The notes under the pieces were generated by a model. The model searched no databases, was not told the origin of the DNA, and saw nothing but the letters and a program-made list of their open reading frames with translations. Position numbers and translations under genes: made by a program. This document shows, piece after piece, positions 36,533 through 61,319 of a DNA stretch of 64,000 nt. The stretch covers positions 32,001 to 96,000 of the forward strand of contig CAWDSQ010000020.1 of NCBI GenBank assembly GCA_963804955.1. Direction: 5' to 3'. Numbering within the stretch: position 1 is the first letter of the stretch; each line of letters begins with the position of its first letter. The stretch is from an uncultured delta proteobacterium (GTDB lineage Bacteria; Desulfobacterota; WTBG01; CAIYCZ01; CAIRTM01).

Positions 36533-37339
36533 TCACCAGCACCAGTCAGTGCCGCCGTCGACGCTCAGGTTCTGGGCAGTTATATAGGAGGCTTCATCGG
36601 ATGCCAGAAAAGCAATCGCCGATGCCACCTCTTCGGGCTCGCCCTTGCGAGGGATGAGCAACTGCCCGTTTTTGACCGACTCCTCTATGATCCAGTCGAT
36701 AAACGTATCGCGCTCGGCCATCATGGCATCCTCAATCTTGTGCCAGATTTCCGTGGCTACAACGCCGGGCGACACGCAGTTGACCCGTATGCCCATGGGC
36801 GCAAAGCACTTGGCAAGGTTCTTGGTGAACATGACAACCGCGGCCTTGGAAGCCGGATACGCGCCGGTTTCTGTTTTTATGCCCCGGGCCATGGCCGAGG
36901 AAACCGTGACGATGGAGCCGCGGATGCCGTTTTCTATCATGTTATTGGCGCAGGCGCGGCAGAATAAAAGCGAGCCGCGCGCGTTCACATTCATGACGCG
37001 GTCCCACTCATCCACGGTGAGATCAAAGGCCGAGGGCTGCTTCTCGTTTATGCCGGCATTTGACACGGCGACATGAATCGGGCCGTAGGTCGCAACGGCC
37101 TGCTTCACCAGCGCGTCAATTGATTCGGGGATGGCCACGTCGCAGGAAATATAGCAGGCCGTGCCGCCCTTTTCCATTATTTCGGCTGCGACCTTTTCGC
37201 CGTTTTCCCTGTTGCGGTTTGCAATGACAACTTTTGCACCTTCATCGGCAAAACGGTGCGCTGTGCCCCGGCCTATGCCTGTGCCGCCGCCGGTGATTAT
37301 GACATGTTTGCCGGTAAATCTTTGTGCGCTTCTATTCAT
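36533..37339 (-). CDS. Short-chain dehydrogenase/reductase (SDR)
   Basis: TGGGTGIG, SNAG, YPASK, IRVNCVSPG, ends DGGTDWCW. Confidence 0.93.
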   Translation of the reverse strand: MNRSAQRFTGKHVIITGGGTGIGRGTAHRFADEGAKVVIANRNRENGEKVAAEIMEKGGTACYISCDVAIPESIDALVKQAVATYGPIHVAVSNAGINEKQPSAFDLTVDEWDRVMNVNARGSLLFCRACANNMIENGIRGSIVTVSSAMARGIKTETGAYPASKAAVVMFTKNLAKCFAPMGIRVNCVSPGVVATEIWHKIEDAMMAERDTFIDWIIEESVKNGQLLIPRKGEPEEVASAIAFLASDEASYITAQNLSVDGGTDWCW

Positions 37340-37365
37340 GAGATGCTCCTTTATGATTTTTAATT

Positions 37366-38588
37366 TTATAATCCAGCCGCATCATACACCAGATCGATAA
37401 TATCGTATACCGGCATCGGGTTGTCCATCCCCTGAGCCGCTGCTGCGAGATTTGTTTCGCAGAACGGGCAGGCAGATGCAAGGGCCTGAGCTCCCGCACT
37501 CCGTGCAGCATCAAGGGCCTCCCGGCCCATATCGGCTGCCAATGCGCCGGCTTCAAACAGGCGCATGCCGCCGCCGGCGCCGCAGCAGATGGTGTTCTCC
37601 CTGGTTGCCGGCCGCTCGACAAGCGTTATGCCGGGTATGGCTTTTAGTATATCCCGTGGCGGGTTAAAAACGCCCAGATGCCGTCCCAGGTGGCAGGGAT
37701 CATGATAGGCCACAGTCATATGCTGCTCTTTGGTGAAGGCAATCTTTTTATCCTTTACAAGCCGTGCCAGATATTCAACCAGATGATACACTTTCGGCGC
37801 AAGTTTTTCATCGGTCTTTGCATACTCAGTTTTCAGCATAGTGCAGCATCCGGCGCAGAGCGTGACTATTGCTGTGCAGCCAAGGCCATTAAGCAGATTA
37901 ATATTGTTTTTAATCATGTCTGCAGCAAGATCCGTGTCGCCGATACGCTTCTGCACACTGCCGCAGCAGGGTTCCGCAGCCACCCAGTATACCGAAGTCG
38001 ACGCCTGCCGCCTTGCAGCACGGCAGCAGCTTTTTTCGCCCGCTCAGCGAGCTCCGGATTGAGGCTCATGGTGCAGCCGACAAAAAGCAGAACATCCGAC
38101 TTATCTTTCTGCGCATCTTTGAGCTTGAGTCCCTTTGCCCATTTGCCCCGAGCCGAACGCGGCATGCCCCAGGGATTGCCGTACTGGCGGGTTTGCTCAA
38201 GCACGCGGCGATAGGCCTCATCCACAAGATCGGGACATTCCCGCAGCAGGTCAGCCCGCAGTGCCTCGACCACGGCCGTATTGTCGACAAGGGGCTTGCC
38301 CGTGTCCTGATCAGTGGCGCCGCACTGGGTCATGCAGTTGCCGCAGAGGGTGCAGCTGTAGGCAGCCCGGGCCAGACCCTCAGTGGGCTGGAGGCTTCCT
38401 TCAAGCAGGGCCTGCGCCAGCATGATTTTGCCGCGGGAGGAAAAATTTTCAAATCCCGGGGTAGCCTTTTTCACGGGGCAGACATAGGGAACTTTGCCGG
38501 TAACCTTGTACCTGCATACGCCGCAGGTGCGGCAGCTGTATATATACCTGCGAACACGGTCAAGCTCACGGAATGTATTCTCAGCCAT
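37366..38588 (-). CDS. 4Fe-4S / CCG-domain oxidoreductase subunit (GlcF/GlpC/HdrD-like; frameshifted)
   Basis: CRTCGVC, CTLCGNCMTQC, CCG, CAGC, YHDPCHLGR, CCGAGGG, ACPFC. Confidence 0.9.
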
Positions 38589-40054
38589 TGCTGTCCTCCT
38601 TTTCGTTTAAATAACTGCCTGTCCACTGGCCGGGATTGAGAATGCCATGAGGGTCAACAACTCCTTTGACAGCCTCAAACAGGCTCTTGAAGCCGGGGGA
38701 CCAGCACGAAGCGTTCAGGTCTGACATAAATCCCTGATTGTAGACATCAATTGATCCAAGGCTGTGGGCGTATTTCTGAAAATCAGCCATTAACGTGCGG
38801 GCAAAGGCGATGGCAGCCGGATTGTCAACATCGGCAAAGAAAACGTCGATTTCACCGACGATGGTGCTTGGGTCAGAAGCGGTGAAAAACTCCCAGGTTG
38901 TGCGCACGCGAAGGCCCAGTTTTTCTGCTTCTTTCAGCCTTTCATTGCGCCAGGCGATCAGCTTGTTATATACTTCCGCAAAGCCCTGCCGCGGCAGGTT
39001 GAAGGGCAGCCATGCCGGAACGCCGAAGCTGTTGAAAATGGCCATCCAGTCCATTTCGCTGTCCTCGCCCGTCGGCGTTCCCATGGCTTCAGCCATGGCG
39101 TCGAGCATGAAGTTGCGCTGCGCCCCGCACTGATCGGCAAGGCTGTTGATGGTGGCAAGCCGTGCTTCAACCTCGGCCTCCTCGTGGCCCTGTATCATAG
39201 CCTGCACGGTAAAGGGCGCTACCTCGTCGGTATCACCCATAAAATTTTTCATTGCCCCGGCGCCGAAAACAAGCACCGGGATCAAAGCGAAGCACAGGGC
39301 GGCGTTCAACGTGGAGCCGCACGAGCTCAAGCGCAGGCTCGATTGCATCAAAAGCGAAAATGCCAGCCCGCAGCTTGGCCGGGTGCTTCGTCATGCGGAT
39401 GGTTGCCTGGGTTTTGATGCCGAAGGAGCCGCCATCGCCGATGAACATTCCGGCAAAATCCGGTCCGCCCAGATTACGGTTGTAGGCAAGGGTCTGGTGC
39501 ACATTGGTGCCGGGCCCGCCGCCGGTTTGCACAATGGTGCCATCGGCAAGCACCACGGTGATGCTCACGATATCGGTCCAGAGACCCGCTGCGCCTGCAA
39601 CGCCTGATATCCATCCGCCAAGTGATACCATATGCAAAGGCGCAAAAGGCGACCACATATAAAAACCATTCTTTTTGCAGGCATGCACCATTTTGCCTAA
39701 GATAATGCCTGCTTCGGCCGTGACGGTCATGCTCTGTGCATTAACATCGAGAACCCGGTCCATGCGCGTCATGTCCAGCAGCACGGTACGGTCCGGGTCG
39801 CCCTTGGGCTGGCCGTAAATAGTAGCCCCGCCGCCGCGGGTCACGATGGGCACGCGGTGCCGATTGCACAGGGCTGCAATGCGCGACACCTCAGCGGTTG
39901 AGCCCGGCCGCACAACCAGCGCGGATTCTGTTCCGCCGAAAAGGCTTGCATCGCGGGTATAGGTGAATCGCGTCACCGGGTCGTCGGTCACGTACTGCTC
40001 GCCGACGATTTCATTCAATTGTTTTTTGAACTCACCAGATAAGGCTTCCGTCAT
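38581..40054 (-). CDS. FAD-binding oxidoreductase (GlcD/PCMH-type; frameshifted)
   Basis: VVRPGSTAEVSRI, VTRGGGA, LDMTRMDRV, VVLADGT, GDGGSFGIKT, C-terminal DPHGILNPG. Confidence 0.88.
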
Positions 40055-40073
40055 GACGTCTGTCCTTTCACGG

Positions 40074-40699
40074 TTATTTGATAACAAATTTGTCGATTAA
40101 AGCTTTGATGCCAAGGCGCACATCCTCTTCGGTATAGCCCATGACGCGCCTGCCATGGCTTTCAAGTATCAGGCCCTGGTACAGCATCTGGCTTGAACCG
40201 CCGATGATCTGCCGTATGACCTGAGGCTTAAGCGCTGACTCGATAAGACCCTGTCGCTGCCCGTCGGCAATAAGGTCGTCGAGGGTCAGCTGCAGCTGGC
40301 CGGGCGCCTCCAATAATCAGCGCATATTTTTTTTGCAGATTTTCATCCTTCATCTTTCTCAGTATCGGGCAGAACTTCTTTGAGGATATGCCCCCAGTAG
40401 AGATTCTTGTTGCTTTGTGACATAAGCTCCATGAGGGCTGCAAATACGGCATGGAGCCGCTCAACCGGTGTTGAGCACCGGGCGAGCTTTTGATTGATCA
40501 GATCATTGACGCTTTCAATAAAGAAAAGAATGACATCCAGCAGTATGTCGAGCTTGTTTTCAAAACAGACATGCACAAGGCCTTTCGAGACGCCTGCCTC
40601 TTTCGCGATTTCGGCGATGGTGGTGTACTGGTAGCCTTTACAGGCGAAAATTTTCATCGCCGCGTTGAGGATTCGCGTCTTTTTATCCTGTTCGGTCAA
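40074..40699 (-). CDS. TetR-family transcriptional regulator (frameshifted)
   Basis: ILNAAMKIFACKGY..TTIAEIAKEAGVSKG; TTG start with GAGGAG RBS. Confidence 0.88.
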
Positions 40700-40717
40700 T
40701 CGATATACTCCTCTGCC

Positions 40718-41992
40718 TTACAGCATATCGCTCAGGCTTGTTTTGGTGCGGCTGTTTATTTTTTCATGCAGTTCAGGCCGCTCAGACCGGATCAGCTGCT
40801 CATGTTTAAGAATAGCATTCCACATGAGCCGCGGAGATTTGTACTGGTTGTAGGTGCCTTCAAGAATCTCATCTTCTATGAGTCCGAACAGATAGTCAAG
40901 CTCTTCATCGGTGTAGGTGGGCACCAGGGCGAATCCCTGCGCAACCTGCAGGTAGTCATCTCCATTAAACTCGAAGGACTTCTGCCACCATGCAGTGTAC
41001 TGGCTAAATCCGCCCCGTCCCTCAAGCTCATCGGCAACAGCGCCTGCTGCACGAAAGCCGCAGGCAAGGGCGCCCTGCATCTCGACTTCGACATAGGCTG
41101 CTGCATCGCCGATCACGAGAACATTGCCTGCATGCGGCACTTTCAGGGATGAGTAGGCCCGTGCAGCGCAGCCGGTTTTTTTTATAACCCGTGCATTCCG
41201 AAGCGACGGGGAAAGAGCGCCTTTATGTGCGATATCCTGAAACATTTTTTCCGGCGGGCTGTTTTTGTTGCCGATAACGACCAGGCAGGCGGTGTCGGCA
41301 TCATCAAGGGCCGTGTTGAGCGTAAGCGGTGCAAGACCGCAGTAGGTACGACCGAAATACGTCTTCAGGGCGCTGGGTTCAAAACCGGCAACGCCTTTCA
41401 GAAAATAGATGACGCACAGAGCAGAAGCAAAGCATTGGCGATTGCTGTTTATTCCCATGCGCTCAGCAATCCGGGAATTGACGCCGTCGGCAATAATAAG
41501 CTTGCGGGCATTGATCACGTTTTGTTCCCCTGCGCTGGTTATGAAAAGCGCAACCATATCACCGCGGTCAACAGCGCCGGTTACATGCGTGCCGGACCGC
41601 AATTCAGCACCCGAAGCAGCAGCTGCATCCCACAGGTTCCGGAGCATGAGTCCCTTGTCGATTTTGATTACAATGGGGCTTTTGTCCGGATAGGCAAAAT
41701 GAATGGTCCTGCCGGCAGGGGAGATGAAATACTTATCGGTGACATCGACAGTCGGGCCTCCGTAGTCGACACAGAAGCCGTTGTTGAGTGATACAATTTT
41801 GCCAGCTTTAAGTCGGACCGTGTCGCCCTGAAAGTCTTTGTCCATAATGAGCTGTTCGCAGCAGGCACGGGTGATGAGCGATACATCCTGTCGCTTTTCA
41901 AGCAACACTGTTTTCAATCCCAGTTCAGCGGCGGTTTTTGCCGCCATCAGCCCCGCAGGGCCCGCTCCGATTATTGCAATGTCATACACCAT
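40718..41992 (-). CDS. Geranylgeranyl-reductase/FixC-family FAD-dependent oxidoreductase (copy 1)
   Basis: YDIAIIGAGPAG, IIADGVNS, NVLVIGDAA; AAGGAG RBS before ATG 41992. Confidence 0.82.
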   Translation of the reverse strand: MVYDIAIIGAGPAGLMAAKTAAELGLKTVLLEKRQDVSLITRACCEQLIMDKDFQGDTVRLKAGKIVSLNNGFCVDYGGPTVDVTDKYFISPAGRTIHFAYPDKSPIVIKIDKGLMLRNLWDAAAASGAELRSGTHVTGAVDRGDMVALFITSAGEQNVINARKLIIADGVNSRIAERMGINSNRQCFASALCVIYFLKGVAGFEPSALKTYFGRTYCGLAPLTLNTALDDADTACLVVIGNKNSPPEKMFQDIAHKGALSPSLRNARVIKKTGCAARAYSSLKVPHAGNVLVIGDAAAYVEVEMQGALACGFRAAGAVADELEGRGGFSQYTAWWQKSFEFNGDDYLQVAQGFALVPTYTDEELDYLFGLIEDEILEGTYNQYKSPRLMWNAILKHEQLIRSERPELHEKINSRTKTSLSDML

Positions 41993-42014
41993 GGCAGTCT
42001 CCTTATTGAATATG

Positions 42015-42401
42015 TCATGCACCTGATGGAAGCAGAGGGAATTTATACATACCGAACAGAAAGGCTATATGGTCGATGAACCAGGCGACCTGAGTTACCG
42101 TAATAATGCTGTGATAGGCTGCTATACGGCGGGCTCTGCGCAGCAGGAGGGCTGCAGGAAACAGCAGCCACACGACAAAGCCGATCACGATGGCAAAAAC
42201 AATCACGCTGTTTGTTCCCGGCAGGTTCATCTTTAGGGCCGTGACTCCCATCATCGGCAGCATGCTCTACCAGGAAATCAAGCAGCACTGCCCAACTCAT
42301 TATTAGCACAGAAAAATGGCTGCCATTGTCGCGATACGACCAAGCCGCTCCGTGATAAAGAAGCAATAGGCAACCGTGTACAGTGTTTCACTGAGCGTCA
42401 T
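42015..42401 (-). CDS. Small polytopic membrane protein (frameshifted)
   Basis: Joined fragments give about four hydrophobic segments; same strand as and abutting the downstream reductase. Confidence 0.55.
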
Positions 42402-42697: not shown

Positions 42698-43198
42698 ATG
42701 GACTATACAGCAGAATTTAATCCCAATGATTCATTATCTTATCTCCTGGACAAGACAGCAAGAGCCCAGTTCTGCCGCTTGCAGAATGTTTTTACAAAAG
42801 CCAATTACGATATAACGGTTGAACAGTGGATGATTCTGCTGCTGCTTTGGAAAGAAAACGGCCAGTTTCAGCAGCAGCTTGCTGATGGTATGTGTAAAGA
42901 TAAAACAACATTGACGCGGCAAATAGACGGACTTGAGAAGCGCAACATTATTGTGCGTGTACCTGACAAAATAGATCGAAGACAAAAACGTATTTATCTA
43001 ACCACGAAAGGTAAAGATTTGGAACAGGAACTGATACCGCTGGGCATTGCAAACGGACTATGCGCAATAAAAGATATTCCCCCTGAGCATATTCAGATTT
43101 GCAAGGATGTACTGCGTAAAGTTTATGAAAATCTTATAAACAGGTTAATATTATATTGCATAATTAGTTGCATAGCCAACTGTGTGCGGCGCAACTAA
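42698..43198 (+). CDS. MarR-family transcriptional regulator
   Basis: ITVEQWMIL, QQQLA...DKTTLTRQIDGLEKR, DRRQKRIYLTTKG. Confidence 0.93.
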   Translation: MDYTAEFNPNDSLSYLLDKTARAQFCRLQNVFTKANYDITVEQWMILLLLWKENGQFQQQLADGMCKDKTTLTRQIDGLEKRNIIVRVPDKIDRRQKRIYLTTKGKDLEQELIPLGIANGLCAIKDIPPEHIQICKDVLRKVYENLINRLILYCIISCIANCVRRN

Positions 43199-43213
43199 TA
43201 TAAGGAGATACAA

Positions 43214-44019
43214 ATGGAACAAAGCGCAAAAAGATTTATAAATAAGCATATTATTATTACAGGTGCGGCAGCCGGCATCGGCAAAGGTGTTGCTCACCGA
43301 TTTGCTGACGAAGGGGGCAGGGTGGTTATTGCCGACAGGAACCGGGAATGCGGTGAGGCAGTTGCGAAACAAATTACTGAATCCGGTGGAACCGCTGTCT
43401 ATATTCCTGTTGATGTGGCTGATCCGGATTCAATAAATGAACTCATAAAAAAAGCAGCTGACGTTTTTGGGCCGATAGATGTCGCTGTGTCAAACGCGGG
43501 TATCAGCGAAACGCAGTCTTCAGCCCTTGATATTACCGTTGAGGAGTGGGACCGCGTGTATGACATAAATACCAGGGGGTCATTTTTTTTCTGCAAAGCA
43601 TGCGCTCAGAATATGATGGATAATGATATCAAGGGATCAATCGTGACCCTGGGATCAATTGTAGCGCGCAGCGCGAAAGGCATGTCGGGGGCGTACGCTT
43701 CTTCAAAAGCTGCAATCATCATGTTTACTAAAACACTTGCAAAATGCCTTGCGCCCATGGGCATACGGGTAAATTGTGTTGCGCCGGGGATTGTTGCAAC
43801 CGAAATATATAACGGTGTCGAAAAAGAGATGATGATGGAAAAAGATTCTTTTGCCGACTGGCTGGTAGAGCAGTCGATTGCAAGCGGCCAGCTGCTTATA
43901 CCCCGTTGCGGTACGGCAGGTGATATCGCCTGGCCATTGCCTTTCTGGCATCCGATGATGCAGCCTATATTACCGCTCAAAACTTAAGCGTTGATGGCGG
44001 CATAGACTGGTGTTGGTAA
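43214..44019 (+). CDS. SDR oxidoreductase, paralogue of 36533-37339 (frameshift near 43930)
   Basis: TGAAAGIG, SNAG, YASSK; the shifted frame ends ITAQNLSVDGGIDWCW*. Confidence 0.92.
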
Positions 44020-46370: not shown

Positions 46371-46848
46371 TTTACGGCAGCCGGTGTGCGGCAGAACACT
46401 GAAAAATTTATTGCTGCACATGGACGTTTTGACCCTTTAAAAATGCAATTTAAACAGTTCTGTAAGGTGCAGGTAAAAAGCGATGCTGCTAGTGAGAACA
46501 GCGTGCGTACGATGAACAGGTTTAAGTGTGTTTTAATCGACACAGGGGTACTTACTCTGTATCTGCTTATAAATTTATTGCCGCTCAGAGTCCGTGATTA
46601 TATTCTGGACAGAATGTTTCCACCTATCCGGGATACTCGGCACTCAGCGTATTCAAAAGGTAAGGAGCACCGTGCATAAATCATGAAAAAATTTTACCTG
46701 AAAAAAGTGTGTTGAATGACTAAATAGTTACTGTTTCAAGCGACCTTTTTTAAAAAGGTATGCTTAGAAAAGGAGGGTGTGATTGTCTTTTCAATCGTAA
46801 AAAGTTGTATGGACACAAAATAATTTTTTCTAAAGGAGTACGGGACTT

Positions 46849-53084: not shown

Positions 53085-53114
53085 AAAATACCCTTCCTGA
53101 ATTTTTTCGTAATT

Positions 53115-54320
53115 TTACTTCATCAATTCCAGCAACCGTTGCCATGGCCGGGCCGCCGCCGGCGCACAGGGAAGCGCAGCCGAGGGCCGCGCCCATGCGC
53201 TCCATTTCATGCAGCAGCGTCACCAGCACCCGAAGGCCCGAGCACCCGACGGGATGCCCAAGGGATATGCCCGAGCCGTTGCGGTTGACGATATCCATGT
53301 TAAGCTTGTAGCCGTGTTCTTTTGCAAGCAGGTGCTCCACGCCCAGAAACTGGGCGGCAAAAGCTTCATTTACTTCCCAGTAGCCGATATCGGCAAACGA
53401 CAAGCCCGGCTTTTTGCAGCACCCGCGGAATGGCATAGGCAGGGCCGATGCCCATGACCGAAGGCTCAACGCCCACGCTTGCCGTTGCACGTACGCGGGC
53501 CTGTGATTTGCAGGCCCAGATCGCGGGCTTTCTGCTCGCTCATAAGCACCATGGCTGCTGCGCCGTCATTGACGCCGGAGGCATTGCCTGCCGTCACCGT
53601 TCCGTCTTTTTTGAAAATTGTTTTGAGGTTTGCCAGTGTTTCAAGCGAGGTGTCCGCCCGGGGATGTTCGTCAGTGTCAAACACAATAGGTGCCTTTTTT
53701 CTGCTTAACCTCGACCGGCACGGTTTCGGCTTTAAAGGTTCCGGCCTTGATGGCTGCGCATGACCGGGCATGGCTCAAGCACGGCAAGCTCGTCCTGCAC
53801 CTGCCTGCTGATGCCAAAGCGGGCAGCCACGTTTTCAGCCGTTACACCCATGTGGCAGTGCTCAATCGAGCAGACCAGCGCATCCAGAAGCATGGCGTCT
53901 TCAATTGTAGCCGGTCCCATGCGGTACCCTGTGCGGGCCTTCTGCAGAAGATAGGGGGCCATGCTCATGTTTTCGACACCCACCACAAGGCACACATCTG
54001 TTTCTCCAAGCATGATATTGCGGGAGGCGATTTCAAGGGCGCGCATTGAGGAAGCGCACAGCTGATTGACCGTGCAGGCCGGGCTTTCCCAGGGTATGCC
54101 GAGTTCGGCCTGTATCTGCCTGCCGATATTGCCGCCAACGCCTGCCTGAATGACATTGCCGCAGACAAGCTCATCGACCTGTTCAGGCGTTGATGCCCGC
54201 CCGCTGCATCGCCTCAGCGCCGACGATACGACCGAGCTCCCGTGGGTGAATCTCTTTCATTGATCCCAGAAAATCGCCTATCGGTGTTCTGCAAGCGCTG
54301 ACGATAACAGCTGCATTCAT
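53115..54320 (-). CDS. Thiolase (acetyl-CoA C-acyltransferase; multiple frameshifts)
   Basis: [60 protein letters not shown]. Confidence 0.93.
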
Positions 54321-54345
54321 ACTGCCTCCTGTACGATTTTTTTAA

Positions 54346-55117
54346 TTACTTTCGCATCCAGCGCTGATATTTGCGCATGCCGTCTTTTTCAAAAGCCGAG
54401 CTGTTGACCGTAACCTGGTTGACGGTTATTTTGCTCAGAAGCATGCCTTTTTTGATCATTTCACGGGCCTGCTGCGGTTCGATTTTCATTTTTTTTGCAA
54501 GCTCCTCGTAGGGATAAATTTCTACCAGGACTTTTTCGAATTCAGGGTTTGATCCATCAATAAGTTCAGCAGTGCCGATAAACTGTGCGCACAGCACCGT
54601 ACCCCATGTTTTGAATTCTTCATGCCAGTTGAGGCTCACCTTTGGATTCTGTTTTATGTGCAAAAGCTTCGTGGTGCCTTTTTCATGCAGTCCGTACAGT
54701 GTCATGGTGTCAGGATCAAAGGCGAAATCGGCTGTGGTGGTAAGCGGCACATTATTGAGGCTGGTGCCCAGCACACAGGTTCTTTTGCTGTTTTTTGCCG
54801 CCCATGAGTTTTCCGATTTCAGCCTTAAGCCGGTCCTGCGGCATGACGCCCTGACCTGCGGCATACTTAAGATAGGCCCCATGCAGCCAGGCCTGCGTTG
54901 CGGTTGTCTTTGCATCCAGCTTTACCTCATGGCAGTCATTGCAGGAAACACCCTGCGGTATTTCGGGATGATTGTCGCTCAGGCCGCTTGCAGCGGCGTC
55001 GATCTGTTTGGGCTTTGCCGCCTTTTTCTGTCATGCTGCGGCAGCGAAAGAAAAGCTCCCGAACATGAGAACAGCTGCAATGCCGGAAAACAATGCTGTA
55101 TACATAACCTTCTTCAT
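54346..55117 (-). CDS. Exported monoheme c-type cytochrome / PNPOx-like split-barrel fusion (one in-frame TGA, one frameshift)
   Basis: Manual translation: MKKVMYTALFSGIAAVLMFGSFSFAAAA*QKK...DNHPEIPQGVSCNDCHEVK...GGKK, then KRTCVLGT...KLLHIKQNPKVSL...QFIGTAELI. Confidence 0.72.
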
Positions 55118-55358
55118 TACGATGAACTCCTTATTTCGGTTTATGTTTTCAGTTTTATGTACTATGGCAATTTTTTTTCTGCAGTGCTGAGTACTGACAG
55201 GTTGAAAAATCCAGTCGAAAATAGATCCCGTACTCTGCGGGCGTCAATTTCGTCAGAAGCACCAGATAACTAAACCCGTATCGGTTAAAATAACCTTGAA
55301 CAGGTCATTGTGAAATGCTGCTTAAAAAAAGTCTTTTTTATCTGTACAGCAAGGGTTG

Positions 55359-56623
55359 TTAGATCGCCCTGTTAACCAAATCAACCAGACTCAGCATTTT
55401 CAGCGGGCTGCCGATAGCGTTGATGGAATCCCCGAGATTCGACTCACACCAGGGGCAGGAGGTGACCAGCGCTTCGGCTCCGGTTGATTCAGCCTCCTCA
55501 ATGCGCTCGCGCGCTGTTTCAAGTGCAAATTCCGGAAATGCCGAGCGCACTCCGCCGCCGGCGCCGCAGCACCATGAAAATTCCCGGATGCGCTCCATTT
55601 CCACAAGTTCAACACCCGGTATGGCTTTCAGCACATTGCGCGGTGCATCGAATACGCCTTGTGCTCCGTAATTGCGCTCCCGCGGCGGCTCTGAGAGGCC
55701 CCACTTCACGCGCACGCCTTCCCACAGGTCCTGCGGCTCGCTGCCGCGGCCCAAATGGCAGGGGTCATGCCAGGTGACACGCATCGGCACTTCTTTCGTA
55801 AACTTCAGCCGTCCTTCCTGTATAAGCTGATCGAGATACTCGGAGCTGTGCTTTACCTCAAAATTCATTTTGCCGACTCCGGGGTACTGGCTTCTTAAAA
55901 CTCCGTAGCATCCTGCGCATGAGGTCACGACGGTCTTGATGCCCAGGTCATTGAACATTTGAATATTGTCGGCCTGCATGTTCGCGAAACATGTCTACCA
56001 TGCCCACCTTCAGCACCGGGCTGGCGCAGCAGGCCTCATTGTTTCCGAGAATGCCCGACATCAATGCCCGCATTCTGAAGAATACCGAGTGTCGCGCGGG
56101 ACACCTCCTGCATATTGGCATTGTAGGAATACGTGCAGCCGGCAAAATACAGAACCTCGGCCTTTTCTTTGCTGATGTCTTTCACCTTCATTTTACGCGC
56201 CCAGTGACCGCGCCGCGAGCGGGGCTGGAGCCAGGGATTGTTGTTCTGGCGAATGCTGTCAACCGCAGGCATATGGCCGGGCAGGGGGCCTTTGCCCTTG
56301 GCAACGGCAAGTGCACGCAGCTCCTGCAGAATTTCAAGGGGCTCCATGTCGCGGGTGAACTTGCAGGTCACGTCACATCCGCCGCACAGGGTGCAGGTGT
56401 AGATGACCTCGGCGGCTTTGTCCGTCATTTCCACCTCGCCTTCCAAAAGCGCCCGGGCAAGATCAAAGCGGCCCTGGGCTGAGTAAGCGTCAAATTTGTA
56501 TTTCTGCATCGACGGGCAGATCCGGGCCCGCTCTTTGCTTTTGATACTCCATGGGTGCACCCATTTGCACATGGAGCAGCGCTCACAGTTAACCAGGTCC
56601 CAGCGGTATTTTTCAAGACTCAT
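55359..56623 (-). CDS. 4Fe-4S / CCG-domain oxidoreductase subunit (frameshifted)
   Basis: CERCSMC, CTLCGGCDVTC, CCASP, SCAGC, WHDPCHLGR, CCGAGGG, SCPWC. Confidence 0.9.
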
Positions 56624-56760
56624 TGGTTCTCTCCATTTTAGATTTTGGATTGCGGAGTTTGGATGCAGTACAAAGCAAATATCCAAAACAGCCGCTTGTA
56701 TTTAGTTATTCATCTGAATCGGTTTGGGATTTTTGGATTTTCAATCAGCAATCGTAAATC

Positions 56761-58304
56761 CTAAAGGCCGAGCTTTCCGGGATTCATTATGTTTTTCGGG
56801 TCAAGCACGTCCTTGACCATTTTTGCCGTCTGAAACTGCACGGCGTTGCCGCTTGCGATCATTTCGGCCCAGGGGCCATAGGCCCGGGTAAACAGCGCTC
56901 CAAGCCCGTACATGCGGCGGCTTGCGCTGCCGTGTACCTGCCGCATGCGTGCGCAGTCATCACGGTCTGACGGGTCATAGGGCAGCATAAATTCAAGATG
57001 GCAGACCCGGCCGTTTTCAATCGGCTGTAAATAGATGCCCATGTCGTCGGTTGCCACAGAGCTCTTTATCGCTTCCTGGTGCATGGCATCGACAAACTTC
57101 GAAGCGCGGTTCATGGTGGTGATGAAGAAAATATCCGAGCTTGCCCCTTTCAGGCGATCCTTCCAGTACACATCGCCATCCCAGCACCGAAGCAGGTTCT
57201 GACTCAAAAAAAGCGGCTGCACGGGGCGCCTGGCTGATGCCCGGCTGCGGCGCGAGACCGCATTCGCGGGCTGTTTCAAGAAAATCAGCCTCCTGCCAGG
57301 CAATGCGCTCATCGGGCAAACGGCGAAGCCCCCCGATGCAGAAAATCTGCACATAGGCGGGCAGCCGCTTTTTAAGACGCTCATAATCCTCGGGCATGCT
57401 CTGCGCAAGTATAAGCGCCAGTGCCGTGCGGTTCAGGATAAAGCATTCATAGCCAAGCCACTTGCGCTGAACCCTGTAGGTAAAATCAACCAGTGCGTCC
57501 AGATTATCAGATGCCGTGAAAAAAAGTTTCTGCCGGGAGGGCAGGGGTTCTGCCATGATATTCATCCAGGTTGACTATGCCAAGAGTGCCCTGTGAACGG
57601 GTATACAGCCTGTTCCAGTCAAAGCCGGGTCCCCAGGGGCCTACCATGTCTGAGTTGTTCAGCTCGGGCGGCCCGAGGGCTGCTGTGCCCGTGCGGAAGA
57701 TATCGCCCGACGGCATGACGATCTCCATAGTGTAAACGGGCTCGCTGTAATTAAACTCGGGGATGAGCTTGGGCTGCGCCTCAAGATTAGACGTGAGCAC
57801 GGACTGATCCCTGCGGGGCAGAAGCGGAAATAAAGCCCGGAGATTTTCTTTGGCAAGGGCTTCCTGCAGCTGGCCATAGGTGACGCCGGGCTGTATGCGG
57901 GCGCTGCGGTTTCTGTGATCGATTTTTTGTATCTGCCGCCAGCCCGACAGGTCGACCGCCGCGCCGCCCATGCGTACCAGAGCGTTTCCATAAGTATGGG
58001 TGCCCGAGCTGAGCGGGGTCAGGGGAAGGGATGCTTCATTGGCGTATTTGACCAGAGCGCAGAGCCTTTCAAGATTATCAGGCTTCAGGACAAAGCAGGG
58101 CCTGCCGGCCTCTTCAAGGCTTTTGTCCCGGCTGAGCGCGTCGAGGGCCGCAGGGTCTGCGCACACCTGCTCCGGGCCAAGTATTTCTTCCAGACGGGCT
58201 TTCTGCTCAGCGGAGTAGTGCTGCCGCTCTCTTATAACCTGGTCGTACGGTTTATCTTCCAGGGGCTTTAAATAATCAACTTTTGCAAGCACGGTATCTG
58301 CCAT
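56761..58304 (-). CDS. FAD-binding oxidoreductase (GlcD/PCMH-type; frameshifted)
   Basis: AVDLSGWRQI, IQPGVTYGQL, EIVMPSGDIFRTG, SQGTLGIV, DPKNIMNPGKL. Confidence 0.88.
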
Positions 58305-58537
58305 GTGACCTCCTGAATCAAGTAAAACTGCTGGTATGTGTCATCTCGACCAAAGGGAGAGATCTTTCTTCAGTCTGCATATTTTAAATACCCCTCACCC
58401 TGACCCTCTCCCGCAAAGAAAGAGTAAGCTTGTAAGGAGTGTGTATAGGCTGTATCGCATTACATAAAGTTTCGAAGGCAGAGTCTGTTTTAAAAGTGGC
58501 TCTTTAATTCGGTAAATCCATGGTCCCTTAATACGCA

Positions 58538-60103
58538 TTAGCCTTTGGGCGGCTCCTGCGGCACCGGGTAATCGGGGTTCGAGGTCAGCCTCGGATCAAC
58601 AGCCTTCTTAATGTTGAGAACCAGTTCATGGTAGTTACACATGGTCGGGCCGGCGATATAATTCATGGGACCCAAAGGCCAGGTGGTGCACATCCTGCGC
58701 TTCACCGCTTCTACAACGGTCTGGGCATAGCTGTTAATGAAGCTTGCGCCGGCGTCAAGATCGTGCTCGAAATAAATAAGGGGTTCGGTCTCTGAGTAGT
58801 GCCCCAGCTGATAGGAGTTCAGCCAGTCATTATGCGTGTCGTCAGGCACGAAGTGCCCCTTTTTCTGGCCCTGTTCAATGAGGGGCCACATATAGTCTTC
58901 GCTCATTTTGTAGCTTTGGTCGATGGAATCAAAGCCGAAGCCGCCGATGACGAAAAAGTCACCTGCAATGCGGAACAACCGGTTTGACAGACCCGTTCGA
59001 ATCTGCTCGCCGATATTGTCCTGGCCGATGCTCCACAGCTCCGAGCCCTCTTCTATATATGCTTCCGCCGAGCTCTTTAACGATTGCGTCAAGCACCTTC
59101 TGCTCATAGGCTATCTGGCGGGAAGAGGAGAATCCGATAAGGGTTACGGAGAGCACATTGCGCCACTGCTTCATGAAGTCCGGGTATTTTTTCCAGAAAT
59201 ACTCAACCGAGGGAGATGCGCCCGAGAGCACCATGGTGGCCGGCTCTTCATGAACGGCTGCTGCTATTTCGGCGTGGCCGACTTCATACATCGCTTCGAT
59301 CAGTTTCTTGCGGTCGGGAAACTTGATAAGATTGAGCTTGAAGCGGTCTTTGGGGAAATCGACTTCAAAGTTCGGGTTTGCACCCTTGACCGGAAAGGAC
59401 TGAGGGCCCTGGATAGGGAAACAGTTTTACCGCCATGCGGGTAACCATGCCCATGCCGCCGCAGTGGCCTGAATCTGCCCGCAGCAGACCTTTCAGGTTC
59501 ATGCCTGCGCAGTCGCCCCAGAACCAGTCCGCACCCGGCATTGCTGCGCGAACCTATATGCAGAATATCTCCGTTTGGCAGCACCCAGTCGCATCCCAGC
59601 ACGCCGCGGTTATAGCCGAATTTATGCCCTGTGCCGCCCATGCCCTGAAACATATTGTTAGCCACGACAGATACCTGGGCGCCGGCCTCTGCTATCGTGA
59701 TGGTCAAACCGTGTTTCATGGCCTCAGCCTGCAGCTGGGCATAGGTCACATACGGTTCCACCACGGCATACATGTTCTGCGTGTCGATTTCGACAATGCT
59801 GTCCATCCGTTTGGGGTCTATGATAATCGTATCGGCCCGGGCCGGTATGGTCGGCGGCAGCAGATTGGTGCCGACCGGAATGTAATTGAACTTATACCGG
59901 TTGGCGATTTTAATGATAGTCTGCACATCCTGCGTACTGCGCGGCAGCACAACAGCTGCGGGCCGGTAGCGGCCTGACTGGGCATGAGTGCTGTAGATCA
60001 GCCACATATAGCTGTAGCCTGAAGTTACAGCCGGATCGTCGCAGATGTTTTCAGCGCCAAGCGCATCGGCAAGCGCCTGATAAGCTCCTTGTGGAAGCCC
60101 CAT
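58538..60103 (-). CDS. FAD-binding oxidoreductase (GlcD/PCMH-type; frameshifted)
   Basis: PAAVVLPRSTQDVQTII, IDPKRMDSI, VEPYVTYAQL, WVLPNGDILHIGS, IKKAVDP. Confidence 0.87.
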
Positions 60104-60131
60104 TATGCATTCCTCCTGATAGAATTATCCG

Positions 60132-60569
60132 TTAAGCGTTTTTTTTGATGGAATCCACAATGCTGTTGATCTGAAAGTGATTTTGATCCGCAAGATCAAA
60201 TTCAACCTTCATGACAAACCGCGTAAAAATAACCCCGATTGAAAGAAAATAAATTGCCCTCGCCAGTTTCTCGGCGTTAACCTGACGGAAGGAGCCCTCT
60301 TTGATGCCCTGACGAATTATACCGGCCAGCGTGCTTATGTATTTGTCGTAAAAAGAAGTAATCATTTCCTTTGCTTCAACACGCTCGGCTTCTTTGGCCA
60401 GAAATTCGATATAGATTTTGAAAAAGTCGCTATGCTCGCCGATGATTGAAATTGCCCGGTCGACAAAAATTTTCAGCCGCTCTTCGGCGTTTTTTCCTTC
60501 ATCGATCCCTGTCTGGATTTCATTAAAATACTTGTTTGTACCGTAGTGAAATATTTCTGTTGTGATCAT
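60132..60569 (-). CDS. TetR C-terminal (ligand/dimerisation) domain only, no HTH
   Basis: Aligns by eye with the C-terminal ~140 aa of 60732-61319 (EERL..F, DFFK..IEFL, FY, GI..G.F, AEK.A.AIYFL); AGGAGG RBS directly before the ATG. Confidence 0.8.
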   Translation of the reverse strand: MITTEIFHYGTNKYFNEIQTGIDEGKNAEERLKIFVDRAISIIGEHSDFFKIYIEFLAKEAERVEAKEMITSFYDKYISTLAGIIRQGIKEGSFRQVNAEKLARAIYFLSIGVIFTRFVMKVEFDLADQNHFQINSIVDSIKKNA

Positions 60570-60698
60570 AAAACCCTCCTATTGTTTGCCGACTGGTCAG
60601 TATAGTAATTTGTCTTAAAAAAAGTCTTTGAAAATTAAAGCATTGTCCTTTTCCGGCAGTAAAAGATTTAGACGACCGGTCAGTGTACCATTATGTTG

Positions 60699-60722
60699 AA
60701 AAAAAGGGGGTTGCGGCCCCCT
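60699..60722 (-). terminator. Terminator after the full-length tetR
   Basis: On the minus strand AGGGGG-CCGCAA-CCCCCT followed by a T run. Confidence 0.7.
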
Positions 60723-60731
60723 GTTTCAGCA

Positions 60732-61319
60732 CTATTCCTTGAGAGTTTTAAAAATATTGTTCAGTTGAAAAGAGTGCTGTTCAATCAGGTCATATTCCAC
60801 ATTGACTGAAAAATACGTGAAAAATGCCCCCATAAAGAGAAAATAGATCGCCAGGGCTGTCTTCTCGGCATCATGGGGTTTAAAAATACCCTTGCGTATG
60901 CCTTCTTCGACATAACTTTTAAATGTGCCGACTGATTCCTTGTAAAAAGCAGTCATCATGTCGCGTATCTCGGAATCACGCACGCCATAAGAAAGAAACT
61001 CAATGCAGAATTTGAAAAAATCGGCATTTTCTTTCTGGATATTACCGGCTTTATTTATGAAAACCTGCAGACGCTCCTCCGGGTTGGCTATATCCGCCGT
61101 GTAATTTTTCAGATAGTTGGTATATCTGTAAACGCGATACTTGAACAGTTCCTGAAAAAGCTCTTTTTTGGATTTGAAATGGTAATAAATACCGCCCTTG
61201 CTGATTTTAGCCTTAGCGGCAATCGTATCCATGGCTGTTTCATAATAGCCTTTTTCATTGAAGCACTGTACGGCAGCCTCAAAAATATCCTCTTTTCTAT
61301 CCCGTTTTGAATCATCCAT
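60732..61319 (-). CDS. TetR-family transcriptional regulator
   Basis: IFEAAVQCFNEKGY..TAMDTIAAKAKISKGGIYYHFKSKKEL. Confidence 0.95.
   Translation of the reverse strand: MDDSKRDRKEDIFEAAVQCFNEKGYYETAMDTIAAKAKISKGGIYYHFKSKKELFQELFKYRVYRYTNYLKNYTADIANPEERLQVFINKAGNIQKENADFFKFCIEFLSYGVRDSEIRDMMTAFYKESVGTFKSYVEEGIRKGIFKPHDAEKTALAIYFLFMGAFFTYFSVNVEYDLIEQHSFQLNNIFKTLKE

Follow-up and report, generated by a model that had tools for sequence, protein, structure and literature searches.

A gene cluster of uncultured Thermodesulfobacteriota that probably breaks down pigment remains or similar lipophilic molecules without oxygen

Results

Gene content of the cluster

A run of 22 genes, about 25 kb long, occupies positions 36533–61319 of the window, the 64,000-nucleotide stretch of DNA from an uncultured, oxygen-avoiding bacterium that was analysed here. 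The cluster probably breaks down pigment remains or similar lipophilic molecules without oxygen. It is made up of three sub-operons, and the proposal that these form one functional system is largely supported. Module 1 encodes an SDR, a CCG Fe-S protein, a FAD oxidase, a TetR regulator and a GGR-like flavoprotein. The FDBR operon encodes a MarR regulator, an SDR, an ATC-hydrolase-like protein, a ferredoxin-FDBR fusion and a second FDBR. Module 2 encodes a GGR-like flavoprotein, a thiolase, a cytochrome c/split-barrel fusion, a CCG protein, two FAD oxidases and two TetRs.

36533–37339, −: SDR1, intact, 268 aa, ending in DWCW (adh_short_C2, E 2e-63)
37366–38588, −: CCG1, Fe-S subunit with Fer4_8 and two CCG domains; one frame break near 37,980–38,013; intact orthologues 401–408 aa
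38581–40087, −: FADox1, FAD_binding_4 flavoprotein; one frame break near 39,236–39,279; intact orthologues 486–492 aa
40077–40699, −: TetR1 regulator (TetR_N, E 5e-14); one frame break near 40,343–40,355
40718–42022, −: GGR1, GGR-superfamily FAD flavoprotein, intact, 434 aa (Pfam/NCBIfam profile searches)
42698–43198, +: MarR-family regulator heading the FDBR operon (PF01047, E 1.4e-13)
43214–44019, +: SDR2, second DWCW-type SDR; one frame break near 43,933–43,945
44051–44530, +: ATC-hydrolase-like Cys-rich protein, 159 aa (PF14196, E 1.9e-12)
44598–45587, +: FerFDBR, 2x[4Fe-4S] ferredoxin domain and FDBR-like domain, intact, 329 aa (Fer4 and Fe_bilin_red)
45658–46370, +: FDBR2, second FDBR-like gene; one frame break near 46,047–46,056
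46386–46679, +: small ORF, 97 aa, without Pfam match
46849–48778, +: secreted TSP3-repeat/FG-GAP protein, split over two overlapping ORFs in different frames (inferred break)
49049–49801, +: predicted membrane protein, 250 aa, without Pfam or NCBIfam match
49879–51156, −: DUF1329/LolA-like envelope protein with signal peptide, 425 aa (PF07044, E 1.3e-35)
51764–53084, −: GGR2, second GGR-like flavoprotein; one frame break near 52,600
53074–54320, −: thiolase, acetyl-CoA C-acyltransferase type; about four frame changes, at least three ORF pieces; intact orthologues 400–406 aa
54346–55117, −: exported protein with signal peptide, one CxxCH heme-c motif and a PNPOx-like split barrel; frame broken once, near 54,790, with an in-frame TGA at 55,031–55,033
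55359–56686, −: CCG2, Fe-S subunit; two frame changes; intact orthologue 420 aa
56761–58304, −: FADox2, FAD_binding_4 flavoprotein; two frame changes; intact orthologue 513 aa
58538–60103, −: FADox3, FAD_binding_4 flavoprotein; three frame changes; intact orthologue 519 aa
60132–60569, −: TetR2, 145 aa, ligand domain only, no HTH (matches TetR_C families only)
60732–61319, −: TetR3 regulator, intact, 195 aa (TetR_N, E 1.5e-17)

An earlier note on this DNA had listed two SDRs sharing a DWCW C-terminus, two GGR-family flavoproteins, two CCG Fe-S subunits with three FAD-oxidoreductases, a thiolase, a DUF1329-like protein, a cytochrome-barrel fusion, a MarR and three TetR-type genes. The full list was recovered by a Pfam scan of 34 ORFs and tblastn self-comparison, with the refinement that one TetR (60132–60569) is a C-terminal domain only. 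The borders given there are correct, because the genes on either side are unrelated: upstream lies a split NhaA, downstream a small PG-binding protein. The frame changes, the ATC-hydrolase-like gene and the secreted TSP3/FG-GAP protein are additions to that list. Comparison with intact orthologues placed at least 18 single-base frame changes in 12 of 15 genes; they look like assembly errors, the corresponding genes being intact in relatives.

The two SDRs are 61% identical, and the DWCW ending of SDR2 is visible only when the reading spans the frame break near 43,940. This ending was present in all 17 distinct SDRs that adjoin FDBR-like genes, and in the window genome it occurred in the two window SDRs only, among 20 SDR ORF hits. 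The DWCW SDRs form one clade (100/100), separate from two other SDRs of the same genome; SDR1 belongs to this clade, which was found only next to FDBR-like genes. The two Fer4+CCG proteins are 30–39% identical. Among the regulators, the MarR gene adjoins the ferredoxin-FDBR gene in 7 of 18 loci, a 209-aa TetR1 orthologue aligns across two frames, the domain-only form of TetR2 is kept in relatives (143 aa at the equivalent position in G006), and TetR3 stands at the head of module 2 in relatives. About five loci in the genome carry ATC-hydrolase-like paralogues; two are no more than 10 kb from FDBR-like loci, and a third belongs to the FADox/CCG/GGR cluster on contig C22.

FDBR-like proteins

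By sequence, the two FDBR-like genes are bona fide members of the FDBR family, relatives of the plant and cyanobacterial bile-pigment reductases. The Fe_bilin_red domain of FerFDBR scores 48.3 bits (Pfam cut-off 31 bits) and matches HY2 (6kmd) with E 1.1e-9, while FDBR2, whose intact orthologues (234–248 aa) lie above the Pfam cut-off, matches HY2 and PebB. An invariant Asp in the ‘ICDL / FDF’ strand and one in the ‘NDPG’ motif both align with HY2/PebB, and we take each to have a role. Heme oxygenase, heme-copper oxidase and a ChuW-type enzyme were not found in the genome (87% complete); with no heme oxygenase found, any bilin would therefore need to be imported. Two of four weak ferrochelatase-like matches adjoin other FDBR clusters, and in G030 NuoE/F-like electron-input genes lie upstream of GGR-FDBR-FDBR.

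The tetrapyrrole turnover raised in the earlier note thus gains support from family membership, the aligned Asp residues and the heme oxygenase result, although these do not settle the substrate. Our leading candidate, to which we would give somewhat less than an even chance, is an imported bilin-type pigment (a bilin or chlorophyll-derived phyllobilin) that would be processed reductively without oxygen. Several observations weigh against it. The FDBR-like proteins match solved structures at E 1e-4 to 1e-9, which is far from characterised enzymes, and they could act on another conjugated molecule. In the 275-aa orthologue model of the heme-c/split-barrel protein, the barrel (pLDDT >90) matches PNPOx-like barrels with Z 12–14, and its structural neighbours include heme- and biliverdin-handling proteins; however, this fold is common to FMN, F420 and heme binders alike. 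A Pfam scan of the window cluster found no CoA ligase, CoA transferase or hydratase to feed the thiolase, whose G011 orthologue scores 423 bits against the 240-bit cut-off of TIGR01930. The phenol-active relatives of FADox3 and the gene distributions in certain genomes, both described below, also count against the favoured reading of one system that processes a bilin.

FAD oxidases and the alkylphenol alternative

The label ‘GlcD/GlcF-like’ fits FADox1, which among solved structures is closest to D-lactate dehydrogenase and glycolate oxidase (FAD domain only), but not FADox3, which is nearest to VAO/PCMH-type 4-phenol oxidoreductases (9fge/9ffk, E 1e-20 over the FAD domain; also the 8s7n series and PCMH 1dii). 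The nearest NCBIfam models for CCG1 are TfrB, LdhH and GlpC, each below cut-off. Module 2 might be p-cresol-methylhydroxylase-like, its two different flavoproteins of the VAO/PCMH type acting with a c-type cytochrome and the CCG Fe-S protein (Hdr-like) to hydroxylate side chains of alkylphenols or lignin-derived aromatics with water. AORs would oxidise the aldehyde, the thiolase would complete a CoA pathway, and proteins of the FDBR-like and GGR-like families would have been recruited as ene-reductases for substrates other than pigments. We consider this unlikely, though AOR genes recurrently adjoin the clusters, 4-phenol oxidoreductases and PCMH are described in PMC7617285 as using cytochrome c as electron acceptor, and an anaerobic p-cresol route of PCMH followed by aldehyde dehydrogenase is outlined for Geobacter in PMC1924859. 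The FADox3 alignment covers the FAD-binding domain and not the substrate-binding cap domain; the flavoproteins lack a signal peptide, but the cytochrome, which is fused to a split barrel, is exported; and no benzoyl-CoA pathway genes were detected within the cluster by Pfam scan. An alkylphenol substrate would also leave the tightest conserved core, the tandem FDBR pair with the DWCW SDR, unexplained.

GGR-like flavoproteins and envelope proteins

GGR1 and GGR2 are 41% identical. The AlphaFold model of GGR1 (pLDDT 87) has as its best fold match the archaeal geranylgeranyl reductase Ta0516 (3oz2, E 1e-25, TM 0.70/0.76), which may point to the breakdown or reductive use of a polyisoprenoid-type lipid (phytol, carotenoids, quinone side chains or steroids) with prenyl C=C bonds saturated by the GGR-like enzymes and the chain shortened in a beta-oxidation-like manner by SDR and thiolase. 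The GGR-like family has grown to about 20 loci per genome, some of them in a tandem array on C22 behind DUF1302/DUF1329, and proteins of the DUF1302 and DUF1329 families are linked to hydrophobic ester use in Pseudomonas (bioRxiv 10.1101/2020.07.04.188060). The DUF1329 gene is paired with DUF1302 in relatives, and one locus (L042) adds MMPL/RND and BNR proteins. Yet GGR1 reaches 68 bits against the TIGR02032 cut-off of 158.8 bits, its next fold matches are flavin halogenases and monooxygenases, the cluster holds no acyl-CoA dehydrogenase, hydratase, CoA ligase or steroid-specific family by Pfam scan, and the FDBR-like proteins would have no evident role. We regard such a lipid as more doubtful still than an alkylphenol. 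The earlier note's isoprenoid lead keeps the GGR-like fold as its sole basis, short of settling the substrate, and none of the tests pointed specifically to its other suggestion, steroids.

Conservation among relatives

The three sub-operons are adjacent in five genera of two families: g1 (G000, the window genome, and G003), g2 (G005:C15), g6 (G009:C4), g10 (G017:C31) and g11 (G018:C31 and C4), and probably in a sixth. Gene order differs among these genera. G003, from the window's own genus, has all three on one contig with the FG-GAP gene relocated, and in G005:C15 and G009:C4 module 2 lies about 20 kb or less from the FDBR operon. Family f2 (G017:C31, G018:C31, G018:C4) shows the collinear order FADox-CCG-GGR-cytPNPOx-thiolase-...-FDBR-FDBR-SDR(DWCW)-FADox-CCG-PNPOx. 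In G006, G011, L041 and L042, one strand carries both module 1 and the FDBR pair. GGR2 orthologues (70–92% identity) adjoin the cytochrome/split-barrel gene, GGR1-type genes occupy the module-2 position in G005, G012 and G018, and TSP3/FG-GAP orthologues adjoin the FDBR operon or module 2 in G001, G003, G007, G009 and L038; the 250-aa membrane protein was not seen in relatives' clusters. A third family, f4, again has the core of GGR-like, tandem FDBR-like and FAD oxidase genes, arranged as GGR-FDBR-FDBR-GGR-FADox x3 in three genomes (G030, G034, G036); four more genomes of f4 (G040, G022, G032, G038) have one or two GGR-like genes adjoining a tandem FDBR pair.

Independent sub-operons in relatives, which the earlier note said would speak against its single pathway, were seen only in g7 (G016) and probably in g4 (G007). 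In G016, module 2 lies on a different contig from the ferredoxin-FDBR gene (the contigs measure 435 and 257 kb), and the latter has only an AOR next to it; the two are split between contigs in G007 too. The shuffled adjacency across genera thus upholds a functional unit, while the substrate part of the one-pathway proposal is not settled by it. These distributions, and that of G008 (95% complete; 16 GGR-like matches and no FDBR-like or cytPNPOx match), tell against one system that processes a bilin, as does the placing of the SDR and ferredoxin-FDBR pair among housekeeping genes in f4 and some other genomes.

That placing fits a biosynthetic or a catabolic role. The SDR and FDBR-like pair might produce or modify one of the cell's own pigments or cofactors, and the modules on either side would be unrelated catabolic genes collected in a variable island; we find this about as doubtful as the polyisoprenoid lipid. 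At L037, L040 and L043 the DWCW SDR and ferredoxin-FDBR genes sit between homoserine dehydrogenase, phosphoglycerate mutase, thioesterase and HisF, and characterised FDBRs are biosynthetic (PMC10151467, PMC13446030). However, the bilin source that such a role calls for was not found (see above), V4R and globin, the partners in known pre-PcyA clusters, are both absent from the window cluster, and MarR/TetR control, envelope uptake genes and 2–12 paralogues per genome better match catabolism. Moreover, the flanking modules accompany the SDR/FDBR pair through rearrangements in five to six genera.

FDBR-like loci number about 10 in the window genome, GGR-like loci about 20 and split-barrel loci about 15, and the clustering is above chance. 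Genome-wide, a toolkit partner lies no more than 5 kb away from 8 of 10 FDBR-like loci (1.9 expected; 8 reached in 0 of 2000 relocations), and a FAD-oxidase or CCG gene lies no more than 10 kb away from 9 of 20 GGR-like loci (1.8 expected; 0 of 2000). That the three sub-operons are independent and adjacent only in the window genome is therefore very improbable, despite their separate contigs in G016 and G007, given this co-localisation far beyond random relocation and the shuffled-order adjacency in relatives.

Discussion

Under the favoured bilin-type reading, and more generally for any bulky, conjugated, lipophilic compound taken up from outside the cell and processed anoxically, the predicted course would be as follows. 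The compound would be captured and imported by the DUF1329 protein (plus DUF1302, RND and BNR proteins in relatives) and the secreted FG-GAP protein, and it or an intermediate would bind the MarR and TetR proteins and relieve repression. The ferredoxin-fused FDBR and FDBR2 would reduce C=C bonds of the conjugated system stepwise, at low potential and without a cofactor, in the manner of PebA/PebB, and the two GGR-like flavoproteins would saturate others (vinyl, ethylidene or prenyl). The DWCW-type SDRs may interconvert carbonyl and alcohol groups or reduce a bridge carbon. FADox1 (GlcD-like) and FADox2/3 (VAO/PCMH-like), with their CCG partners and the exported heme-c/split-barrel protein, would dehydrogenate without O2, or hydroxylate with water, and hand on the electrons. 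Finally, the thiolase and the aldehyde:ferredoxin oxidoreductases of relatives may shorten side chains.

The system was not found described in the literature searched. Individual genomes hold 12–34 GGR-like, 3–9 cytPNPOx and 2–12 FDBR-like matches; of 32 genomes that match GGR1 strongly, 31 have FDBR-like genes, as against none of nine that lack such a match. All such counts overstate the support, because related genomes are not independent. Of 251 genomes sampled from the phylum, 8 exceeded the PF05996 cut-off, and each of these belongs to f1 or f2. The 22-gene cluster represents a single copy of a toolkit specific to its lineage, which has been multiplied many times over in an uncultured, order-level clade of Thermodesulfobacteriota.

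Gene content and organization of the cluster

The cluster at window positions 36533–61319 is a catabolic-type redox gene cluster in which known families occur in an undescribed combination. The list of gene families in the earlier note was borne out by a Pfam scan of 34 ORFs (36.5–61.3 kb) and a tblastn self-comparison, which give the following layout.

35009–36374, plus strand: NhaA-family Na+/H+ antiporter, as two overlapping ORFs split by a frame change (unrelated upstream flank)
Cluster, minus strand, module 1: SDR1, CCG1, FADox1, TetR1 and GGR1 (geranylgeranyl reductase-like)
Cluster, plus strand, FDBR operon: MarR, SDR2, an ATC-hydrolase-like protein, FerFDBR (2x[4Fe-4S]-ferredoxin fused to a ferredoxin-dependent bilin reductase, FDBR) and FDBR2
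Cluster, plus strand, after FDBR2: a small ORF, then a secreted TSP3/FG-GAP protein, then a membrane protein
Cluster, minus strand, 3' block: DUF1329, then module 2 (GGR2, thiolase, the exported heme-c/PNPOx-like fusion cytPNPOx, CCG2, FADox2, FADox3, TetR2 and TetR3)
60132–60569, minus strand: TetR2 of module 2, 145 aa
Downstream flank: a small PG-binding protein, unrelated to the cluster

Paralogous pairs within the cluster (tblastn self-comparison)
SDR1/SDR2: 61% identity, DWCW C-terminus in both
GGR1/GGR2: 41% identity
CCG1/CCG2: 30–39% identity
FADox2/FADox3: 26% identity
TetR2/TetR3: 40% identity

At the equivalog level of NCBIfam, the thiolase subfamily was the only name assigned to a cluster protein. 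TetR2 has the ligand-binding domain of TetR proteins but no DNA-binding helix-turn-helix, and may be a ligand-sensing partner or a decoy of TetR3. A 143-aa TetR2 orthologue occupies the same place in the related genome G006, 78 bases behind TetR3, and pieces matching TetR2 were seen in at least seven further genomes. A few kilobases upstream of the cluster, an intact ORF of 716 aa (30493–32643, plus strand) has no Pfam match.

Frame changes in the cluster genes

Compared with intact orthologues, 12 of 15 genes carry frame changes, 18 in all. The NhaA gene lies outside the cluster and is also split, showing that such breaks are not confined to the cluster genes. Contigs of four public sequencing runs, which come from relatives and not necessarily from the same strain, were aligned to positions 52000–60200 at 85% likeness or more. 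Against these contigs the window has one extra base at the 12 places listed of 34, and 9 of the 12 listed extra bases fall inside seven frame-break intervals (54790, 56057, 57203, 57574, 59060/59062, 59410 and 59535/59537). In the relatives, the cluster genes are intact and of the expected lengths. To judge from these alignments, the broken frames are most likely assembly errors, and the cluster genes were read through by homology, without adopting a pseudogene treatment. The copy in this strain may instead be truly decayed. A non-standard genetic code was ruled out, as the breaks are frame changes rather than stop codons and coincide with single extra bases relative to the relatives.

Shortly after the signal peptide, the heme-c/split-barrel gene has an in-frame TGA (55031–55033, minus strand) in place of the Glu codon of close relatives, which may reflect either a base error or a genuine nonsense change. 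The public runs that share words with the locus were five DNA runs, with word shares of 0.05–0.08, and no RNA run.

The FDBR-like proteins

By sequence, FerFDBR and FDBR2 are true members of the FDBR family. FerFDBR scores 48.3 bits against the Pfam model Fe_bilin_red (PF05996; curated cut-off 31 bits). For FDBR2 the broken ORFs of the window reach 28.8 and 19.8 bits, and its intact orthologues 35.6–42.8 bits. Matches to solved structures were found for the FDBR-like proteins with HY2 (6kmd; E 1.1e-9 and 1.1e-4) and PebB (6qwq; E 1.5e-4). Two Asp residues are invariant in each protein, D192 and D305 in FerFDBR and D113 and D225 in FDBR2. The latter pair aligns with the 'LDLNP' and 'KDPG' segments of HY2, while the correspondence for FerFDBR was judged by eye from the motifs. 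We take the HY2 Asp residues at these positions to be catalytic, one being the proton donor on the central sheet and the other the Asp of the C-terminal (K/N)DP motif.

The fused 2x[4Fe-4S] domain is present in FerFDBR, and bilin reduction by this protein is only predicted. Orthologues without the ferredoxin domain, about 246–251 aa long, occur at three loci of family f2 (L076–L078) and on contig C56 of genome G012, so the fusion is a lineage-specific gain or loss.

Flavoproteins, Fe-S subunits and split barrel

Structural modelling places GGR1 as a divergent flavoprotein of the GGR superfamily. Its model (pLDDT 87) has the Ta0516 GGR as top structural match (PDB 3oz2; E 1e-25, TM 0.70/0.76), followed by flavin halogenases and monooxygenases (E 1e-22 to 1e-18), and the G006 orthologue scores 68.1 bits against TIGR02032 (family cut-off 158.8). 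A protein-atlas search with GGR1 gave only FAD-oxidoreductase clusters with generic names, most of them from Thermodesulfobacteriota.

The closest solved relatives of FADox1 are D-lactate and glycolate dehydrogenases, alignable in the FAD domain only. Those of FADox3 are 4-phenol oxidoreductases of the VAO/PCMH type, and its FAD domain (residues 6–251) is likewise the only part that aligns (9fge, 8s7n and 1dii). The nearest models for the CCG proteins are TfrB, LdhH, GlpC and GlcF, all below cut-off. The GlcD/GlcF-like modules named in the earlier note hold as an architecture of FAD_binding_4 and CCG proteins and do not hold as an equivalog assignment, since the module 1 orthologues score far below the cut-offs (GlcD TIGR00387, 86.8 against 567.9 bits; GlcE, 41 against 284; GlcF, 51 against 333). 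In common with GlcDEF and D-lactate dehydrogenase, there are one or two FAD_binding_4 subunits and a Fer4 plus 2xCCG subunit, but the C-terminal substrate domains of the window proteins have diverged.

In the exported fusion, a signal peptide and a single invariant CxxCH are joined to a split barrel, which scores 31.3 bits against PF01243 (cut-off 28.1). The barrel model gave Z scores of 12–14 to GS26, PNPOx-like, heme-binding and F420-binding barrels. In Foldseek and structural comparison its FMN-, F420-, heme- and biliverdin-binding relatives were tied, with Z within about 1.5.

Linkage of the sub-operons

A pattern scan of 185,579 species-representative genomes for FerFDBR relatives yielded 18 loci, all in uncultured Thermodesulfobacteriota or 'delta proteobacterium' MAGs.

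Neighbours of FerFDBR relatives
DWCW SDR: 12/18 loci
FDBR2: 10/17 loci with downstream sequence
MarR: 7/18 loci
FADox1/CCG1: 7/18 loci
GGR1 (at least 57% identity): 5/18 loci
DUF1329: 3/18 loci
Thiolase: 3/18 loci
ATC-hydrolase-like protein: 3/18 loci
FG-GAP protein: 3/18 loci

By tblastn, 4 of the 18 loci have none of these neighbours; three of the four have an amine-oxidase-like flavoprotein, joined in two of them by an aldehyde:ferredoxin oxidoreductase (AOR). The DWCW end is present in all 17 distinct SDRs found beside FDBR-like genes, which form one clade (100/100 support) far from two other SDRs of the window's genome.

The core of module 2, FADox3-FADox2-CCG2-cytPNPOx, stays together at 11 fetched loci from 11 genomes of family f1, usually accompanied by TetRs, GGR2 and thiolase, and is also found in the window's genome, G003 and G016. 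FADox3, FADox2 and CCG2 keep this order in the window as well as at 11 fetched loci from relatives. Five genera have module 2 next to or close to the FDBR operon: g1 (the window's genome and G003), g2 (G005:C15), g6 (G009:C4, at a distance of about 20 kb), g10 and g11. In the last two, both of family f2, all parts are collinear on one strand (G017:C31; G018:C31 and C4). In g9, two contigs of G012 (C44 and C56) appear to join inside a GGR1 gene into one collinear run. The two parts are separate in g7 (G016, on contigs of 435 and 257 kb) and probably in g4 (G007), and the contigs of g3 and g8 are too short to place them. GGR1-type genes stand in the module 2 position in G005, G012 and G018, showing that the modules exchange parts. 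The single system proposed in the earlier note is supported by adjoining sub-operons in five genera and weakened by their separation in g7 and probably g4; we consider it probable that the sub-operons form one system.

Other arrangements of FDBR-like genes were also seen. In three genomes of family f4 (G030, G034 and G036) the order is GGR-FDBR-FDBR-GGR followed by three FAD oxidases, and four more (G040, G022, G032 and G038) have a tandem FDBR pair with one or two GGR-like genes beside it. At one f4 locus, L071 (G030:C1:508001-528000), NuoE-like and NuoF-like genes and 2Fe-2S/4Fe-4S proteins (5787–9239) lie directly upstream of GGR-FDBR-FDBR, and resemble an NADH-linked module dedicated to feeding electrons to the reductases. 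In genus g7 (L032, L034 and L035, on G010:C47, G016:C6 and G015:C2, at about 10–17 kb in each locus), the ferredoxin-FDBR gene has neither FDBR2 nor an SDR beside it; after it come an amine-oxidase/phytoene-desaturase-like flavoprotein (PF01593) and a conserved protein, about 750 aa long, that belongs to no known family. A tungsten-type AOR comes first in L034 and L035, and L032 is without it.

A multiplied toolkit in the clade

The window cluster is one copy of a multiplied toolkit. In families f1, f2, f4 and f5, each genome has 12–34 GGR-like, 3–9 cytPNPOx and 2–12 FDBR-like matches. FDBR-like genes occur in 31 of 32 genomes with a strong GGR1 match and in none of nine without (families f3 and f6), the genomes being related and the counts hence not independent. 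The exception is G008 (f1, genus g5, 95% complete), in which 16 GGR-like matches and no FDBR-like or cytochrome/split-barrel match were found, so that the GGR-like expansion is not strictly tied to FDBR-like genes. In an even sample of the phylum, PF05996 scored above cut-off in 8 of 251 genomes, all in f1 or f2.

A profile search of six-frame ORFs in the window's genome gave about 10 FDBR-like, 20 GGR-like, 15 split-barrel, 16 FAD-oxidase, 14 CCG and 21 AOR loci. A partner family lies within 5 kb of 8 of the 10 FDBR-like loci (1.9 expected; none of 2000 random relocations reached 8), and a FAD-oxidase or CCG gene within 10 kb of 9 of the 20 GGR-like loci (1.8 expected; 0 of 2000 relocations). 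A second supercluster of about 34 kb (contig C7, 378259–412613) holds two GGRs, a split barrel, two FDBR-like genes, DUF1329/DUF1302, FAD oxidases, CCG, ATC-hydrolase-like and SDR genes, and a weak ferrochelatase-like match (390880–391488). On contig C22, a tandem array of GGR-like reading frames (61965–74175) stands directly behind DUF1302/DUF1329, and about 7 kb beyond it is a module 2 paralogue (80870–94960) with FAD oxidases, CCG, GGR-like and ATC-hydrolase-like genes.

Comparison with known systems

The window proteins share with the FDBRs, including the pre-PcyA lineages of non-photosynthetic bacteria, the PF05996 domain, the C-terminal NDP...FG motif and occurrence in heterotrophs, and they have Asp at both positions aligned with HY2 and PebB. 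The two adjacent FDBR genes recall the sequential pair PebA/PebB. Known pre-PcyA clusters encode a heme oxygenase and an Fe-S protein as well as V4R proteins and globins (Rockwell et al. 2023, PMC10151467), and known FDBR-like (pre-PcyA) genes of heterotrophs make phytochromobilin or phycoerythrobilin (PMC10151467, PMC13446030). No Pfam match to heme oxygenase, the V4R pair or a globin/phycobiliprotein-like protein was found in the 34 window ORFs or in 91 ORFs of six relatives' loci. Several features set the window apart from known FDBRs: one of its FDBRs carries a fused 2x[4Fe-4S] ferredoxin domain of its own, FDBR-like genes number 2–12 per genome, GGR-like, VAO/GlcD-like, CCG, SDR, split-barrel and thiolase genes surround them, and the host has no oxidase or heme oxygenase match.

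BilR and BilV convert bilirubin to urobilinogen in gut anaerobes, with the MarR-type BilQ and the flavodoxin-like BilS, according to PMC10769871 and bioRxiv 10.64898/2026.06.10.731317. Shared with this pathway are a MarR-family regulator in the operon, a dedicated electron-carrier protein or domain and, as a prediction here, an imported bilin whose methine bridges and vinyl groups are reduced anaerobically by several enzymes. BilR and BilV are, however, Old Yellow Enzyme (OYE) TIM barrels, and enzyme families, host phylum and habitat all differ. The 34 window ORFs gave no Pfam match to the OYE family.

Of the envelope systems of DUF1302/DUF1329/BNR/RND type in Pseudomonas, to which type AmeABCD of Castellaniella reportedly belongs, the window holds DUF1329 alone. 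All four genes (DUF1329, DUF1302, MMPL/RND and BNR) stand in a row at one fetched locus, L042, and DUF1302 with or without DUF1329 at L033, L036 and L041. The function of these systems is unsettled, with export, uptake or esterase roles proposed (bioRxiv 10.1101/2020.07.04.188060). The freely accessible literature searched held no account of anaerobes in which FDBR-like genes form a cluster with GGR-like or VAO-like ones.

Substrate and proposed role

Profile searches of the window's genome found nothing above cut-off for heme oxygenase (PF01126) or COX1/heme-copper oxidase, only 25.5 bits, below cut-off, for DsrA, and at best 152.8 against 400 bits for ChuW/HutW; this genome is 87% complete, so failed searches fall short of showing absence. 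Given no heme oxygenase or ChuW/HutW match, any bilin reduced by the FDBR-like enzymes must come from outside the cell. The MarR/TetR regulators, the envelope proteins of DUF1302/DUF1329/RND/BNR type and the NuoE/F-like electron-input genes of a relative fit catabolism of, or respiration on, an external hydrophobic compound.

For the substrate we tentatively prefer, at slightly under even confidence, a tetrapyrrole-type compound, with reductive, oxygen-free processing of a linear tetrapyrrole. This preference follows from the FDBR pair being the best-conserved core, from split-barrel structural neighbours that handle heme or biliverdin, from weak ferrochelatase-like genes beside sister clusters, and from the repeated presence of AORs, for which a formyl group is a conceivable target.

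The VAO/PCMH-like flavoproteins, cytochrome and CCG protein equally recall an anaerobic p-cresol methylhydroxylase type of system. As described in PMC7617285 and PMC1924859, the shared features are FAD_binding_4 flavoproteins, a c-type cytochrome in the same operon and oxygen-independent chemistry. The window differs in being alignable in the FAD domain only, in having two unlike flavoproteins plus a CCG Fe-S protein, and in a cytochrome that carries a fused PNPOx-like barrel and, unlike the flavoproteins, is exported. The GGR-like expansion recalls prenyl-chain reduction. GGR1 has the same FAD-binding motifs as its top structural match, Ta0516, but differs in its low identity (about 19%), an extra helical C-terminal region and about 20 paralogous loci per genome. 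The SDR and FerFDBR pair, which stands among housekeeping genes in several genomes, allows a biosynthetic role. Steroid catabolism, held equally possible in the earlier note, was set aside, as the Pfam scan of the 34 window ORFs gave no steroid-typical family.

A wider proposal, which we regard as somewhat more doubtful, is that in this clade of Thermodesulfobacteriota the bilin-reductase fold has become the core of a catabolic regulon, present in many copies, that acts on imported linear tetrapyrroles without oxygen, the window cluster being a complete copy of the pathway. Candidate substrates would be heme- or phycobiliprotein-derived bilins, or chlorophyll-derived phyllobilins. Conjugation would be stripped by self-sufficient ferredoxin-FDBR fusions together with GGR-like flavoproteins, VAO/GlcD-like Fe-S flavoenzymes would functionalise the product with water, and thiolases and tungsten aldehyde oxidoreductases would trim it.

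To our knowledge, next to nothing is established on how anoxic soils and sediments lose their tetrapyrrole pigments (chlorophyll and heme breakdown products, phycobilins), and we know of no characterised anaerobic bilin-reducing enzymes other than the gut OYE enzymes BilR and BilV. The bilin-reductase fold is familiar to us only from pigment biosynthesis and plant chlorophyll breakdown. If the cluster acts on such pigments, it would represent a second, unrelated breakdown route, a catabolic role for the FDBR family and new oxygen-independent flavin/Fe-S chemistry. Whatever the substrate, the conserved and heavily duplicated combination of FDBR-, GGR- and VAO-like, CCG and heme-c/split-barrel proteins is a clear, testable lead, pointing to anaerobic metabolism not yet described in a lineage that is widespread and uncultured.
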